From NCBI GenBank assembly GCA_964490395.1, contig CAZBAS010000003.1, positions 120,293-184,292 on the forward strand: 64,000 nucleotides of DNA. Direction: 5' to 3'. Both the position numbers and the translations under genes were made by a program. A model generated the notes under the pieces. That model searched no databases and was not told the origin of the DNA. It saw only the letters and a program-made list of their open reading frames with translations. This DNA is from an uncultured Candidatus Saccharibacteria bacterium (GTDB taxonomy: Bacteria > Patescibacteriota > Doudnabacteria > UBA920). How positions within the stretch are numbered: the first letter of the stretch is position 1; every line of letters begins with the position of its first letter. Below are positions 11,643 to 17,768 of the stretch, piece by piece.

Positions 11643-11680
11643 TGAACGATCGTTTATTATACACGTGTACGAACGTTTAG
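11643..11680. promoter_or_regulatory. candidate SOS (Cheo-type GAAC-N4-GTTC) box region upstream of the four-helix-bundle and lexA gene pair
   Basis: gtGAACgatcGTTTat is followed by tacacgtgtaCGAACGTTT. The match is imperfect. Confidence 0.25.
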
Positions 11681-11822
11681 TTACTGGTTACAAGACATCA
11701 ATTGTAAATTCAAAAAATGCAATGTCTGGGGTCGGCTGGCATTTGTCAGGACTGCAGAGCCAAGTCTTAGTAACCAGTAATTATTGCGCAAGATTTGAAT
11801 TACGAAGTATGAATTAAGAATT

Positions 11823-12215
11823 ATGCAATCGCACGAACAGAATAAAATTGAGAAGTTTACAGATTTGAATGCATGGCGAGAAGCGCATAATTTGGTTCTA
11901 AAGACTTATGTTGTTATTAAGGATTTTCCTAAGGATGAGTTATTTGGCCTTACGAGTCAGCTAAGACGTGCAGTAGTTTCCATAACGTCGAATATTGCCG
12001 AGGCGTTCAGTAGAAATTCCTTTAAAGAAAAGTTACAATTTTGGGCTATAAGTTTAGGTTCTTTAACAGAAGTCCAAAATCAGTTAATTATAGCTCGAGA
12101 TGTAGGTTATTTGAGTCCACAAGACTACGAAGCCCTGAACAGTCAGTCCATAGTTGCTAGTAAGTTAATCAATGGTTTAATCAAGAAAACTAAAGTAATT
12201 ATTCATAATTCGTAA
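11823..12215 (+). CDS. four-helix-bundle protein (23S rRNA intervening-sequence / Avd-like family), paralogue 1
   Basis: It has the family signature FGLTSQLRRAVVSITSNIAEAFSR. It is about 40% identical to the paralogues at 12879, 13880 and 32497. Confidence 0.8.
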   Translation: MQSHEQNKIEKFTDLNAWREAHNLVLKTYVVIKDFPKDELFGLTSQLRRAVVSITSNIAEAFSRNSFKEKLQFWAISLGSLTEVQNQLIIARDVGYLSPQDYEALNSQSIVASKLINGLIKKTKVIIHNS

Positions 12216-12239
12216 TTCAGTATTCATAATTCAAACTCT

Positions 12240-12857
12240 ATGAGCAAAGATATTACAGGTAGACAAAAAGAATTACTACAATTCATCATAAAACAGGTGC
12301 GAGAGCACAATCTGCCACCGTCTATTTCTGAAATGGCAACTTTTCTTAAAGTGAGCTCCAAGAATGCAGTAGCTAAACTGCTCAATGCTCTGGAAGAAGC
12401 GGGCTACATAAAAACAGACGGTCGTGCGCGCGGTATAACCATATTAGATGCTTTGGGGGATACTCTAGAAAAAGGACTAATTCGCGTACCACTTCTTGGG
12501 CGCATTCAAGCTGGTGTACCGCACATGGCAGAAGAGCAAATAGAAGAGTGGGTTAACTTACCGCAAACTCTGGTAAAGGGTCGTAGAGATGTATTCCTGC
12601 TTAAAGTTCGCGGTGAAAGTATGATAAATGCTGGAATTTACGAAGGGGACCTAGTTATAGTTCGTCCCACCAAAGAAGCAAAGAATACAGATATAGTGGT
12701 GGCTCTTCTGCATGACGAAGCAACGGTGAAGCGACTTATATATGTAAAGAACCGAGCATACCTTAAAGCGGAAAATCCTGAATTCCCAAATATCTATCCT
12801 AAAGAAGAGTGGACCATACAAGGTAAAGTAGTCGGCGTTATCCGAAACCTAGAATAG
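12240..12857 (+). CDS. lexA: LexA repressor (S24 peptidase)
   Basis: An N-terminal winged HTH is followed by a C-terminal VRGESM (Ser) and VKRL (Lys) dyad. The fold motif GDLVIV is present. Confidence 0.9.
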   Translation: MSKDITGRQKELLQFIIKQVREHNLPPSISEMATFLKVSSKNAVAKLLNALEEAGYIKTDGRARGITILDALGDTLEKGLIRVPLLGRIQAGVPHMAEEQIEEWVNLPQTLVKGRRDVFLLKVRGESMINAGIYEGDLVIVRPTKEAKNTDIVVALLHDEATVKRLIYVKNRAYLKAENPEFPNIYPKEEWTIQGKVVGVIRNLE

Positions 12858-12878
12858 TAGTCAGAATATAGTAGTCGG

Positions 12879-13256
12879 TTGTCAGTTAATACGATCTGTA
12901 TGACCATACTCAAGTTTGAAGATATCCTTGCCTGGAAAAAGGCGCATGAGCTAACTCTTATGGTCTACGCACTCACTAAGGATTTCCCCCGAGAAGAGAT
13001 ATTCGGTCTAACTAGCCAGATTCGCGGGGCTGCGGTATCCGTTCCATCAAATATAGCCGAAGGGTTTAAGCGCAGAACCAAGAGCGACTCAATTCACTTT
13101 TATAATATTGCCCAAGGTTCATTGGAAGAAGCTAAATATCAGTTATTGCTCGCGCGCGACTTGGGTTATATACGAAATTCAGATTTTGATCTCAGTGCTG
13201 TTATTACAGATGAGGCAGGTAGATTGCTTGCCGGTTGGATTAGAAACGCTAAATAG
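12879..13256 (+). CDS. four-helix-bundle protein (IVS/Avd-like), paralogue 2
   Basis: FGLTSQIRGAAVSVPSNIAEGFKRR. Confidence 0.8.
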   Translation: MSVNTICMTILKFEDILAWKKAHELTLMVYALTKDFPREEIFGLTSQIRGAAVSVPSNIAEGFKRRTKSDSIHFYNIAQGSLEEAKYQLLLARDLGYIRNSDFDLSAVITDEAGRLLAGWIRNAK

Positions 13257-13350
13257 TACTAACAACTAACAACTGACTACTTACAACTTAATTAATTCCC
13301 CTGCGGTCGTCAGGGTCGTGTTAAACATTCTCTAAATTAAATTTACGTAT

Positions 13351-13842
13351 ATGCAATTAGATTTACAACTACAACAATTAAATGGTTTTTTTGGGACCGC
13401 TGCGTTGGCTACCTATGCCGGTAATAGTGGGTACGCAAAACCAATTAATAAGGGTTTTAAAGAGATGGAATATCGGGAAAACGACTGGTATTACCGTGAC
13501 AGCTATTGTGGCTTCTTTAAATCGTGGGGCAAAGAAACAGTGTGGTTCAAAGAAAAGCCTGTTTGGGTACAAAACTATGGAGGTGGCATGAACACCGAGT
13601 ACCAAGGCAATGAAAGTTTTGCTAAGCGCACATTTAGTTTTCTTAAGTCCGCGCTTGCTGCCGGCAAAAAGAGTGAAGTGTTTCAACCGCGCGGCCCGAA
13701 ACAGTACAAAAAAGGTAATTGGAGATACGAAACAGACCTAGATGGCGGCATTCAAAAGTTCAATGGTTTTGAAAAAATATTTTATAAAGATAAATTAGTA
13801 TTTACCCACCGCTATTTCGGCGGAGTTGTCATAGACAGGTAG
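13351..13842 (+). CDS. hypothetical protein, rich in aromatic and Gly residues
   Basis: It is an intact 163-aa ORF between two four-helix-bundle genes. No motif was recognised. Confidence 0.45.
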   Translation: MQLDLQLQQLNGFFGTAALATYAGNSGYAKPINKGFKEMEYRENDWYYRDSYCGFFKSWGKETVWFKEKPVWVQNYGGGMNTEYQGNESFAKRTFSFLKSALAAGKKSEVFQPRGPKQYKKGNWRYETDLDGGIQKFNGFEKIFYKDKLVFTHRYFGGVVIDR

Positions 13843-13879
13843 TTCATAAAGTTTATAAAGTCCATAAAGTAAATGCAAT

Positions 13880-14224
13880 ATGAAAATTAATAATTTCGAA
13901 GATATTATTGCATGGCAAAAAAGCAAAGACCTGGGGCTTCGACTTTATAAATCTTTTGGCAGACACGCCGATTATGGTTTTAGGGACCAAATACTTCGAG
14001 CGGTCATAAGCATTGCGAATAATATTGCGGAGGGCTTTGAAAGGCGGAGCAATAAAGAATTAAGGCAATTTCTGTTCATTGCAAAAGGATCGTGCGGTGA
14101 AGTTCGGTCTATGCTCTACTTCGCTTCTGAACTGGGTTATATAACATCCGCAGAGCTCGATAGCTATATGGATTCCTCTATAGAAATATCTAAATTATTA
14201 TCTGGATTTATTAAAACTTTATAA
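13880..14224 (+). CDS. four-helix-bundle protein (IVS/Avd-like), paralogue 3
   Basis: ILRAVISIANNIAEGFERRSNKE. Confidence 0.8.
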   Translation: MKINNFEDIIAWQKSKDLGLRLYKSFGRHADYGFRDQILRAVISIANNIAEGFERRSNKELRQFLFIAKGSCGEVRSMLYFASELGYITSAELDSYMDSSIEISKLLSGFIKTL

Positions 14225-14261
14225 ACTTTAAGAACTTTATTAACTTTTAACTTAAAAATAT

Positions 14262-14606: not shown

Positions 14607-14870
14607 ATGCAAACATCTACAGTGCAGTACAAGTACAGTACTCGAACGCAAGGCTGGGTGGCTCGCGAAAAACCAGCATCGTACGCTGGTCGTGAAGATG
14701 CGTTATTGCTGGAGTTTAAAAAAGAAAGCATTGCCTTAGCGCAGCAAATATGGGAACTTGCAAATTTAGATACTAAAATTACTCCCATGGAGGAAGCAAA
14801 ACTAGTATTTAAACTGGAAGCCATTCTAGATATGCGCCGTGAACTAGTAAAAGAGGCGGGTACCAAATAA
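14607..14870 (+). CDS. hypothetical small protein (87 aa)
   Basis: ORF only. Confidence 0.35.
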   Translation: MQTSTVQYKYSTRTQGWVAREKPASYAGREDALLLEFKKESIALAQQIWELANLDTKITPMEEAKLVFKLEAILDMRRELVKEAGTK

Positions 14871-14943
14871 CAAAAATAGCCATAAAAGGCTATTTTTGCT
14901 GTATCAGGCCGACATGCTATTATATTTATAATCTTCCAATCAT

Positions 14944-15171
14944 ATGGAACTTACTAAAGAATATTTGGATAAACACTATCAAGAGCTTAACGAATTTCTC
15001 AGCGAACAGTTTGAGAAGGTTTTTGCTCGTTTCGATGAAATGGCCGCCAAAGCGGAGCTAGCGGCCCTGGAGAGAAAAACAACCGAGGGATTTGCAGAAC
15101 AATCTATTAAACTTGGTTTTATCCAAGCAGGCATAGCGATATTGAGAAAGGACTTAGAAGCCTTGGCCTAA
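14944..15171 (+). CDS. hypothetical coiled-coil protein that may continue by a +1 frameshift to 15280
   Basis: The stop at 15169-15171 is followed by an overlapping open frame reading KRTKDDDNAFTKELIKLKSRIDALERKVQALKKQHA, which ends at the terminator. Confidence 0.35.
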   Translation: MELTKEYLDKHYQELNEFLSEQFEKVFARFDEMAAKAELAALERKTTEGFAEQSIKLGFIQAGIAILRKDLEALA

Positions 15172-15264
15172 GCGCACCAAAGATGATGATAATGCTTTTA
15201 CCAAAGAACTTATTAAGTTGAAAAGTCGTATAGATGCTCTTGAGCGTAAGGTCCAAGCCCTCAA

Positions 15265-15297
15265 AAAACAACACGCCTAAATCGGCGTGTTGTTTTA
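15265..15297 (+). terminator. Rho-independent terminator
   Basis: aacaacacgcc taaat cggcgtgttgtttt. Confidence 0.6.
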
Positions 15298-15458
15298 TCT
15301 GTCTATGTACATAGGATTTTTGGTAGACCAACGGCGAACCAAACCGAGCTAGAATATACTAAAGCAATCTTAGAGATTGAGTTTTCCAATAATAATTGAG
15401 GTGTACGAAAAGAGAATGGAAAACTATTTCACGATACTTATAAGCTATTGAAGTAAAA

Positions 15459-16031
15459 ATGACACAAGATATAAAAGATAAGCTAAATAATAAGCTCAGA
15501 AGCCTTCCTTACACTGAAGTGGACGTGGTTTATATTCTCGTTCAAACATATAAAATATTGGAAAGTTCGGATATGCTTGAAAGTTATAAGACCATAAAGT
15601 TTTTCCGAAATTGGTCGTGCCATGCCAAGCTGAATGGCGATGCTGCAAGAATTTTCAAAGATGCTTACACCTTGATCGAAAATCAAAATAGTTTTAAAGA
15701 TCGTTTCGAATTTATCGACGCTTTCACTGATCAGATAAGTATCTGTTTCTCTAAGTATTCATTTAGCAAGTTGAGACAGCAGACGGAAGAATCCTTTGCC
15801 TCTTTAGGTGTCGAGGGTTTAAATTGGGAAGAGTTTAGAAAAAGTCTATACGGGGTCATTCAAGATACTCCGCTAATTGTATTAGATGAACAGAGAGAAG
15901 AAATAATGCGTTTTAAGTGTGTCGATGCCATCTATGATATGGAGCATGATGACATAGAGATTGAAGTCACTACAGAGACTGGCGTAAACGTAAATATTAC
16001 AACGAATGATTTGGCGCTAGAAGATAATTAG
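15459..16031 (+). CDS. hypothetical cytoplasmic protein (190 aa) in an AT-rich cassette
   Basis: It is an intact ORF. Local GC is about 33%, against roughly 48% in the flanking DNA. Confidence 0.5.
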   Translation: MTQDIKDKLNNKLRSLPYTEVDVVYILVQTYKILESSDMLESYKTIKFFRNWSCHAKLNGDAARIFKDAYTLIENQNSFKDRFEFIDAFTDQISICFSKYSFSKLRQQTEESFASLGVEGLNWEEFRKSLYGVIQDTPLIVLDEQREEIMRFKCVDAIYDMEHDDIEIEVTTETGVNVNITTNDLALEDN

Positions 16032-16252
16032 ATTTGCTTAGTAAATTATAAAAGCCTCTAATTATAGGAGCATAAGTCGTCCACCCGTCTTGTTTTCCTC
16101 TACCACTAACAACCTCATCCCCCTGGATGGGTTTTTTAGTTTAGTTTTATTCATGCGAATTGAGTTTTCCAAAATTTTGGTCTGATTGTTGCATTTCTGA
16201 ATTAAGCCTATAATTAAGACAAGTTAGTTTTCATACACATTAGGTATTCAAT

Positions 16253-16996
16253 ATGTTAATTAAACCCGAAGATATTACTTACAAAATTTATTCTAAACTC
16301 ACTGATTTTAGGTCAGGTTTTTTTATTTTGTTTTTAGTTTTCGTGATATGGACCGCCATTGACCCACGTTGGCAGATTGTGGTATCTAGGGAATTATTTA
16401 TCTCGACCCTTAAAGCAATGATAACGATACTACTTGCTATTGGGGGCATCACTGCAAGTTTTGTAACCATAGCAGTAGGGCTAACAAAAAATAAAAAACG
16501 TGTCGAAGTTACCAATCTTTGGTTGGAATTAGCAAAATATATTATATATCCATTCGCGGTAATCGTACTGATCGGTATAATATTATTTTTAACTCAAATA
16601 AATATATCAATTCCCGATACGAATTCTTCTCTCTCCCTGCTTATGTTTTTTGGGTTTCTAGTTGCTAACTCCTTTTTTGTAATTATAAAGGCATCAGAGA
16701 TTCTTATTGATCAAAGTTGGGTTGAGGAGGAGAAGTTTGAACGTCTTAAAAAACTATTCCCCGTTAGCGAACTAAATAAAACTTTTAAACTTCTAAGGTT
16801 TGAACAACAAAGTGGTAGAATTTATATTTATGATTTAATCAGAAGGAAAAGGAATTGGATATACAATTGGAAGACTTTCACCGATTTGGGTTATCCGCCT
16901 GGGAGCTGGCAAGAAATAGATTTGAATAATGTGCCCAATGAGTTTAGGGACTACTTAGACGATGAAGATATAATATCTCCAGATAGTAATAAATGA
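16253..16996 (+). CDS. hypothetical membrane protein with four transmembrane helices and a soluble C-terminal domain, in an AT-rich cassette
   Basis: There are four hydrophobic helices in the N-terminal 150 aa and the C-terminus is charged. Confidence 0.5.
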   Translation: MLIKPEDITYKIYSKLTDFRSGFFILFLVFVIWTAIDPRWQIVVSRELFISTLKAMITILLAIGGITASFVTIAVGLTKNKKRVEVTNLWLELAKYIIYPFAVIVLIGIILFLTQINISIPDTNSSLSLLMFFGFLVANSFFVIIKASEILIDQSWVEEEKFERLKKLFPVSELNKTFKLLRFEQQSGRIYIYDLIRRKRNWIYNWKTFTDLGYPPGSWQEIDLNNVPNEFRDYLDDEDIISPDSNK

Positions 16997-17096
16997 AGAT
17001 CTCTTACCAAAGCCAAAAATGTTTTCCATCTGTCTCGACTTGGTCTACCGAAAATACCGCGTGTGCGGTATTTTTGGTAGCTTCTTTTCAGGTAGG

Positions 17097-17768
17097 CTAT
17101 TGTGCCGGAGTTTTGAGTGCGTCTTCTATGCGCTGTTTTACTTCTTGTATGCCGCCTTGGAATACTTGCTCGCCATTTACATAAAATGTTGGGGTGCCAG
17201 GGTTGCCAAGTGTGGTGCCATCTGCCTTGTCTTGCTCTATTCGGTCCCGGTGGGGGTGGGTAACCAGGGCTTTATCAAACTTTTCTGCATCAAGTCCTAC
17301 GTCGGCTGCTATTTTTCTGAATATAGGTTTTGGGTCTGTAAGTGTTTCCCATTCTGGTTGGCGGGCATAAAGCGCGTCCACCATCTCAAAGAATTTTCCT
17401 TGGTCCGCTGCTGCTTCTACTGCATCTGCACCTGCGACTGCATTTGCGTGTTGAGGTAGGGGGTAGTGGCGAAATACGAATTTAACTCGGTCGCCGTATG
17501 TTTTATACAAGTTGTCTACCGCTGGGTTGGTACCTGCGCATGCGGGACACTGCATATCTCCAAATTCTATAACAGTAATTTTGCTATCCAATTTCCCACG
17601 TACATGTGGGGTCTCGCGATTTACTGCAGTGGCCTTGTCTGTGCTGCTTGCTGCGCTGCCCGTCCCGGGTGCTGTGTTATTGTTTTTCGCAATAAAATAG
17701 ATGCCTACTGCAAGTACAACAACAACTACCGAAATAATGAGTGTAACTATTTTAGTTTCTTTGGTCAT
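17097..17768 (-). CDS. DsbA/BdbD-family thiol:disulfide oxidoreductase, membrane-anchored
   Basis: It has an N-terminal transmembrane helix and a thioredoxin fold with a CPAC active site. Confidence 0.8.
   Translation of the reverse strand: MTKETKIVTLIISVVVVVLAVGIYFIAKNNNTAPGTGSAASSTDKATAVNRETPHVRGKLDSKITVIEFGDMQCPACAGTNPAVDNLYKTYGDRVKFVFRHYPLPQHANAVAGADAVEAAADQGKFFEMVDALYARQPEWETLTDPKPIFRKIAADVGLDAEKFDKALVTHPHRDRIEQDKADGTTLGNPGTPTFYVNGEQVFQGGIQEVKQRIEDALKTPAQ

Follow-up and report, generated by a model that had tools for sequence, protein, structure and literature searches.

What is an AT-rich segment with two genes of no described family doing between two core genes of a patescibacterial chromosome, and do the two genes belong together? 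The locus lies in a 64,000-nucleotide (nt) stretch of contig CAZBAS010000003.1 (positions 120,293 to 184,292; hereafter the window) from an uncultured bacterium labelled Candidatus Saccharibacteria and assigned to Doudnabacteria in GTDB. An earlier note on these letters had described two intact, co-oriented open reading frames (ORFs) between a strong terminator and a dsbA-like gene, and had read them as a paired soluble and membrane component in the typical layout of a defence cassette. The ORFs are present as described: ORF-A (15459–16031, ATG start, 190 amino acids (aa)) and ORF-B (16253–16996, ATG start, 247 aa), both on the + strand, as are the other features of the islet given below. The explanation that best accounts for the locus as a whole, to which we give a probability of roughly 60%, is that they arrived on a horizontally acquired islet, not as one operon but as two units, each a single gene transcribed on its own, that their pairing is not conserved, and that both are probably related to genetic conflict.

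Evidence for the insertion comes from a relative that lacks it. Scanning the DsbA protein against one genome per species yielded 18 loci, the close ones belonging to Patescibacteria metagenome-assembled genomes (MAGs) labelled Ca. Saccharibacteria or Doudnabacteria. The closest relative (L009) matches the window at 100% identity in LexA and the 64-aa protein and at 75% in DsbA, and it has the genes in the same order; there, the distance from the terminator of the small gene to the 3’ end of dsbA is 179 base pairs (bp), and neither ORF-A nor ORF-B is present. Read side by side, the homology of the two sequences ends after ...CATAGGATTTTTGGTAG (15326) and restarts at ATTTTTGGTAGCTTCTTTTCAG (17070). 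The 1754-bp insert is bracketed by an 11-bp direct repeat, ATTTTTGGTAG (15316–15326 and 17070–17080), a target or attachment (att)-core duplication whose two exact copies in the 64 kb both lie at the islet borders, while the joined site of the relative holds one related copy only (cTTTTGGcGG). Because this empty site exists and the breakpoints coincide with the direct repeat, the segment 15327–17080 is a true insertion, a horizontally acquired AT-rich islet between two core genes. The strong terminator reported before, at 15265–15296, has a perfect stem of 13 bp and a loop of 6 nt; it belongs to the upstream small gene, lies outside the islet and is kept in the empty site.

The composition of the islet is anomalous. 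Taking the window as the reference for GC ranking, repeat uniqueness and gene z-scores (59 genes), the islet has a GC content of 34.8% (44.9% for the whole window) and is the minimum among all 1754-bp segments of the 64 kb (minimum at 15301; 5th percentile 39.7%). ORF-B (33.5% GC, z = -2.8) stands at the bottom of the 59 genes, with ORF-A at 36.3% (z = -2.1). The island of anomalous composition proposed in the earlier note is thus the lowest-GC stretch of its length, and is absent from the nearest relative, although the contrast is less extreme than the 33% against 48% quoted there: the right flank (dsbA) is at 47–51%, whereas the left flank is at 38–42% because other AT-rich insertions sit in it. 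About 5 kb around the islet are also somewhat AT-rich.

Close inspection of the borders reveals a 16-nt terminal inverted repeat (15316–15331 and 17040–17055; 15 of 16 positions complementary, 94%), whose left arm begins with the left direct repeat. At the right end of the islet (17040–17080), the right arm, TTGGTCTACCGAAAAT, and the right direct repeat together form a terminator hairpin with a 16-bp stem (17045–17080), and joining the two islet ends would give a hairpin with a 21-bp stem and the direct repeat inside it. The 3’ flank motif GTCTCGACTTGGTCTACC at this end is also kept downstream of an ORF-B homologue in contig L002 (see below). The border motifs, sought in the other loci with at most one mismatch, were found in none of them, and an Rfam scan of 14800–17400 gave no match. 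The islet consists of ORF-A and ORF-B only, neither of which matches a recombinase family; absence from the closest relative, deviant composition and flanking direct repeats mark it as a genomic islet, one that carries no integrase or transposase of its own. From these ends we infer a route by which a Patescibacteria chromosome, that is, one from the candidate phyla radiation (CPR), may have gained the islet. Two core genes, dsbA and a small coiled-coil gene, converge on the insertion point, which lies between their terminators, and the 11-bp direct repeat at the breakpoints would fit Campbell-type integration of a circle of ~1.74 kb through a short core. As the islet encodes no recombinase, catalysis would have been provided in trans, and the predicted circular junction is TTGGTCTACCGAAAATACCGCGTGTGCGGTATTTTTGGTAGACCAA.

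The islet genes are identical in three independent assemblies (L006–L008). One of these, the NCBI contig L008, equals window positions 15243–17139 exactly, that is, the islet plus about 60–85 nt on each side, an extent that would fit an assembly-graph branch at the islet borders. Another, the ENA contig L007 (coverage 2), is identical to the window as far as 16501, a point inside ORF-B, beyond which (L007 1776–1910) it runs into unrelated GC-rich sequence; either the assembly is chimeric, or ORF-B is disrupted in this variant.

We next turn to the two proteins. Each has protein homologues, and both ORFs are therefore real coding genes. The claim that one is soluble and the other carries four N-terminal transmembrane (TM) helices agrees with Kyte-Doolittle hydropathy, which gives no TM segment for ORF-A (maximum 19-residue mean 0.84) and four for ORF-B, and the claim that neither has a recognisable domain is borne out by Pfam, PADLOC, PHROGs and NCBIfam, none of which returned a significant match to either protein. 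ORF-A is acidic, with 35 D/E against 21 K/R. A word-indexed search had returned the query alone and left it looking like an orphan, a result overturned by a full HMMER search of 1.84 billion representatives, which defines a family of 183 cluster representatives at E<=1e-3, 28 of them at E<=1e-10. Nearly all members are 170–220 aa long, and the longer ones have no added domain recognisable by eye. In an alignment of 51 sequences Y25, K32 and W52 are invariant, and I5, K8, E20, E35, F48, H55, W123, F126 and P138 nearly so. Neither this alignment nor its members matched Pfam or PADLOC, and the remote-homology search advised before, with the alignment profile against the PDB, gave noise only. A scan of IMG/VR and a tblastn search of plasmids found no ORF-A homologue. 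All 30 family clusters that were looked up (90% identity) hold one or two sequences.

The genomic contexts of the family, 23 non-redundant loci, are diverse. The ORF-A-family gene is lower in GC than the rest of its contig in all 20 loci measured (mean difference -10.6 points), and no neighbour family recurs across the 23. In CPR-like small-genome contexts the relatives stand as solo AT-rich islets among core genes: after rpsJ (L037), after mreB (L043), after ftsX (L056), and, in the case of P0027 (L054 4138–4755 and L055 5001–5618), between the genes for the large and small subunits of ribonucleotide reductase, with gaps of 15 nt on each side. Three loci lie directly downstream of tRNA genes, at the tRNA 3’ ends. 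More distant relatives lie in defence or mobile islands, near HEPN_AbiU2 (L027), a phage-type integrase and a DUF5677 protein that matches PADLOC DitA at E 2.3e-60 and whose gene overlaps that of the relative by 4 nt (L028/L029), a type II restriction enzyme (REase_II; L034), Helicase+DUF2290 (PADLOC E 3.6e-230 and 1.9e-38) together with a large serine recombinase (L045), BrnT/BrnA and AbiEii (L046), or an FRG-domain protein (L048). ORF-A is a member of an undescribed, fast-diverging family of ~190-aa acidic cytoplasmic proteins that behaves as a wandering accessory gene, AT-richer than its host.

ORF-B is much rarer. Its TM segments lie at about residues 18–37, 47–78, 89–113 and 125–148 and are followed by a C-terminal domain of ~100 aa. 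Because of a basic loop (KNKKR) and a lysine/arginine-rich stretch after the fourth helix, the positive-inside rule suggests that both termini are probably inside and that the C-terminal domain is cytoplasmic. The best hidden Markov model (HMM) matches, all sub-threshold, were the PADLOC ‘2TM effector’ (E = 0.0085), PycTM (0.089) and Pfam YLATT (0.13). A search of 5.8 billion clustered proteins found two homologues, which share 65% and 56% identity with ORF-B; an iterated search added none, and scans of JGI metagenomes and IMG/VR returned nothing. The homologous gene has a GC content of 0.33, against 0.465 in L001 and 0.477 in L004, where the contig reaches higher-GC DNA; contigs L002, L003 and L005 are AT-rich throughout. 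An AlphaFold2 (AF2) model built from the three sequences shows four long helices at low confidence and, in the C-terminal region, a small, beta-rich alpha/beta domain with a predicted local distance difference test score (pLDDT) of 74–87 (60.6 overall). A Foldseek search of the PDB with this model gave no significant match, the best being an endolysin cell-wall-binding domain (E 0.19); the C-terminal 63–72 residues resemble uncharacterised phage proteins in BFVD (E 5.9e-4, 5.4e-3 and 2.9e-2).

The region upstream of ORF-B appears to move with it. We read a putative promoter module at 16159–16214, comprising a 14-mer box, ATTGAGTTTTCCAA (16159–16172), which overlaps the palindrome CCAAAATTTTGG (16169–16180), a putative -35 element (TTGTTG, 16186–16191), a 17-nt spacer and a putative -10 element (TATAAT, 16209–16214). 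About 135 nt upstream of ORF-B are kept in L002, spanning the box GAGTTTTCCAAAATTTTGG, TATAAT and the next ~20 nt. The box stands at about -59 to -41 relative to TATAAT, a position that would suit an UP element or an activator site. L002 has this ~135-nt leader before the ORF-B homologue and also before an unrelated 175-aa gene. On this evidence ORF-B is a very rare four-TM protein travelling with its own conserved module, a putative promoter. Contig L002 has further features of its own. It starts with an apparent tRNA 3’ end (TCGGGGTTCGATTCCCCGTAGCGCTACCA; ARAGORN made no call on this truncated tRNA), and its positions 1–242 and 1385–1636 form a direct repeat of ~200 nt consisting of the tRNA end, a hairpin and an ORF-B-type promoter module. 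Between these copies lie two unrelated genes for small membrane proteins, and the ORF-B homologue follows downstream.

Are the two genes, then, one cassette? Between them lie an intrinsic-terminator-like hairpin with a T-run (16114–16131; 7-bp stem with 4 G-C pairs, tail TTTTTTAG) and the separate upstream region of ORF-B. The upstream regions of the two genes have one thing in common, the exact 14-mer ATTGAGTTTTCCAA, whose other copy (15376–15389) begins 83 nt ahead of the ORF-A start codon; there is no third exact copy in the window, and none with up to one mismatch in the other loci. The pairing itself is not conserved. A search for the pair in related contexts, as the earlier note had proposed, found no co-occurrence of ORF-A and ORF-B in the contexts of the two ORF-B homologues or in the 23 ORF-A-family loci. 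As upstream neighbours the ORF-B homologues have a protein of 309 aa in L001 and proteins of 175 and 132 aa in L002; none of these is related to ORF-A. With unrelated neighbours for ORF-B, no conserved neighbour for ORF-A and a terminator between the genes, the reading of the soluble and membrane components as a pair is weak.

These findings support the idea of a foreign islet with two independent genes. We infer that both most likely act separately in genetic conflict, for example in the exclusion of phages or mobile elements or in immunity, where the membrane may be the site of action of ORF-B and the cytoplasm that of ORF-A; foreign composition, rapid divergence, patchiness and the presence of some members near defence or recombinase genes are typical of conflict genes. 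Several observations weigh against this explanation. The exact 14-mer before both genes could mean co-regulation, and hence a functional link, and three ORF-B sequences are too few for co-occurrence statistics to tell against such a link. The route of integration is read from a single empty site in a diverged relative. Neither protein matches a known family, whether in Pfam, PADLOC, PHROGs or NCBIfam or, for ORF-A, in the PDB profile search; the single-sequence AF2 model of ORF-A is unusable (pLDDT 45), and that of ORF-B is of moderate confidence (60.6). Finally, the defence neighbours belong to distant ORF-A relatives only, whereas the close CPR relatives sit among housekeeping genes.

The alternative that survives best is the original one, a two-component abortive-infection or defence cassette in which ORF-A would be a cytoplasmic sensor or regulator and ORF-B a membrane-disrupting effector. 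The joint arrival of the genes on one islet and the 14-mer before each of them favour it, and they are joined by the sub-threshold matches of ORF-B to 2TM, PycTM and YLATT and by ORF-A relatives that adjoin other small TM proteins (L030, L032 and L037) or sit in defence islands. The key support, recurrence of the pair, is lacking, however: the pair is known from this genome alone, the homologues of ORF-B have unrelated partners, and no ORF-A locus has an ORF-B-like neighbour. The genes are moreover separated by a terminator, ORF-A relatives are often solo islets, TM neighbours occur at about the frequency expected by chance (by our estimate), and every HMM match is below threshold. We therefore regard a sensor with a membrane effector as unlikely. 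What remains of the proposed defence layout is that distant ORF-A relatives do occur in defence and mobile contexts, but no known defence family is matched and the pair is unique to this genome.

Two further alternatives, both of which we consider improbable, separate the genes in other ways. ORF-A could be a selfish homing-type gene, from a new endonuclease-like family that copies itself into the spacers of conserved operons, with ORF-B as an unrelated passenger or neighbour. The solo homologues placed exactly between the two ribonucleotide reductase genes, and those after rpsJ and mreB, would suit such a gene, and the conserved polar residues E20, Y25, K32, E35, H55 and D136 could form an active site. 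However, no nuclease motif or family is recognisable (Pfam and the PDB profile search), the strong acidity of ORF-A is unusual for a DNA-binding endonuclease, no homologue appears in the viral contigs of IMG/VR or in PHROGs, and the direct repeat at the islet ends fits site-specific or microhomology integration instead. Alternatively, the islet might carry orphan immunity or antagonism cargo, with ORF-A as an acidic immunity protein or DNA mimic and ORF-B as a membrane protein for immunity or exclusion. The genes would belong to cassette-like arrays with a common promoter module, by analogy with acquired interbacterial defence arrays. The acidity and fast divergence of ORF-A (one or two sequences in each of 30/30 clusters) and the use of one leader for different cargo genes in L002, beside a tRNA 3’ end and a ~200-nt direct repeat, are in line with this proposal; against it, no toxin gene or fragment was recognised nearby, no known immunity family is matched and no recombinase adjoins the islet in the window. 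That the two are lineage-specific genes of an ordinary core or housekeeping kind, low in GC through local compositional noise alone, an alternative compatible with their intactness, their identity in three independent assemblies and the somewhat AT-rich surrounding 5 kb, is excluded, as neither gene is core: both are low in GC and missing from the nearest relative, which has a clean empty site, the islet is the extreme of the window’s GC distribution, and the homologues are scattered, rare and always compositionally foreign.

Returning to the reading of two independent genes on a foreign islet, its wider interest lies in the organisms concerned. The genomes of Patescibacteria are tiny, and few defence systems and few mobile elements have been recognised in them; the islet is a cleanly delimited insertion without a recombinase in a CPR genome. 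The ORF-A family, with 183 cluster representatives and no Pfam model, behaves like a mobile conflict gene in many phyla. If ORF-A or ORF-B does serve defence, immunity or homing, it would represent a new family in the accessory gene pool of these organisms and offer a handle on how DNA enters their genomes. Tentatively, and as a speculation, ORF-A may stand for a widespread but undescribed family of single genes that spread themselves or serve defence, and that colonise core-operon spacers, tRNA ends and defence islands across bacteria including Patescibacteria. The islet and the cassettes with ORF-B would then be moved in trans by way of att sites that contain hairpins and of shared leader modules, and CPR genomes would in effect have a cassette system without an integrase. 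Neither protein is in a described family, whereas the kind of object, a small foreign islet of hypothetical genes, is familiar. The locus is a well-documented hypothetical islet rather than a demonstrated system, and what makes it valuable is chiefly the ORF-A family, together with so clean a signature of insertion in a CPR genome.

The surroundings of the islet are themselves variable. Across related MAGs (L010–L017) the junction between dsbA and the small-gene cluster ranges from 0.2 to 7 kb, and in more distant relatives it holds genes for malic enzyme, DUF1761, dihydroorotate dehydrogenase and others (names read from ORF translations, not from a family-library scan). Rather than a dedicated defence island, the dsbA junction is a site of variable content. 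To the left of the islet lie three 23S_rRNA_IVP-type genes (11823–12215, 12879–13256 and 13880–14224), each tightly bracketed by its own inverted repeat of 23–32 nt. The resulting modules (11794–12235, 12856–13293 and 13841–14247) are all AT-rich and all missing from the closest relative, and they look like stem-loop modules of the intervening sequence (IVS) type placed in intergenic spacers, outside any rRNA gene. Upstream of lexA the SOS-box-like motifs GAACGATCGTTT and CGAACGTTT (11644–11678) are kept in the closest relative; the first module (11794–12240 interval) lies between them and the lexA start (12240) and was therefore inserted into the lexA leader. Nearer the islet, a 75-aa ORF (14944–15171) is shortened by a 1-nt insertion relative to L009, in which the frame runs to a stop in the terminator stem (window ~15279); L006 and L007, which are independent assemblies, show this frameshift too.

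Among known systems, one point of contact is Aditi, the DitA/DitB pair of PADLOC. A distant ORF-A relative, P0065, stands behind the DitA-matching DUF5677 protein (E = 2.3e-60), that is, in the position of DitB, with an integrase adjacent. In both loci concerned (L028 3462–5614 and L029 1595–3747) the DitA-like gene beside the integrase is followed, with the 4-nt overlap, by the ORF-A-family gene in place of a protein of ~355 aa. A difference from Aditi is that tblastn with two DitA-like proteins finds no such gene in the window, and neither ORF-A nor the 51 family members match PADLOC DitB. On two plasmids of Firmicutes (C. difficile and S. salivarius), the partners of the DUF5677 genes homologous to this DitA-like one are proteins of ~355 aa, which we take to be DitB by a label not derived from a PADLOC scan, and which are unrelated to ORF-A. 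An identity of ORF-A with DitB was rejected on the missing PADLOC match and on the failure of the ORF-A (A3) profile to find these ~355-aa partners. Because the latter are unrelated to the ORF-A family, L028 is not evidence for ORF-A as DitB; it is a DitA-like gene with a different partner, possibly a variant Aditi-like pair. No mechanistic information was found in the literature on Aditi and DUF5677.

ORF-B resembles the 2TM/Cap15 effectors of CBASS and the PycTM effectors of Pycsar in being small, in joining N-terminal TM helices to a small soluble C-terminal domain, in lying on a foreign islet and in its weak HMM similarity to their TM regions. It differs in that the matches are sub-threshold (E 0.0085 to 0.089) and the helices number four, not two; there is no cyclase or other signal-producing gene among the neighbouring ORFs, and no Cap15-like beta-barrel was detected. 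ORF-A in turn recalls the HEPN RNases (Rx4-6H), since it and its close relatives have RNWxxH in a helical N-terminal region (RNWSCH, invariant in ORF-A and 11 close relatives) and one relative adjoins a HEPN_AbiU2 gene. Across the family, the arginine of the motif is R in 63/149 sequences and C in 54/149, no HEPN model of Pfam matches, and hhalign against the neighbouring HEPN_AbiU2 protein gives a probability of 9%. The R-to-C replacement and the hhalign result count against HEPN as a family trait, and membership, as judged from these alignments and from the Pfam and PDB profile searches, is not supported.

Free-standing homing endonuclease genes typically sit in spacers between conserved genes, for example mobE between nrdA and nrdB of T-even phages, and P0027 is placed in this way. 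ORF-A relatives share with them the solo, AT-rich and recombinase-less state and the placement in short spacers between highly conserved genes. ORF-A differs in being acidic, in bearing no nuclease signature, in being chromosomal in bacteria and absent from phage collections, and in lying on an islet with a direct-repeat duplication. The last comparison is with integron cassettes. Here the differences are structural: the joined ends would form a near-perfect 21-bp stem (a plain 16-bp stem at 17045–17080), without the extrahelical bases or the R’’/L’’/L’/R’ boxes of attC, and the cassettes of the islet have terminators and putative promoters of their own. No IntI-type integrase or attI was seen among the annotated neighbours, the rest of the window not having been scanned for IntI. 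Like an integron cassette, the islet is small and recombinase-less, its joined ends would make a long hairpin that holds the crossover site, and, in L002, the same leader is repeated before different cargo.

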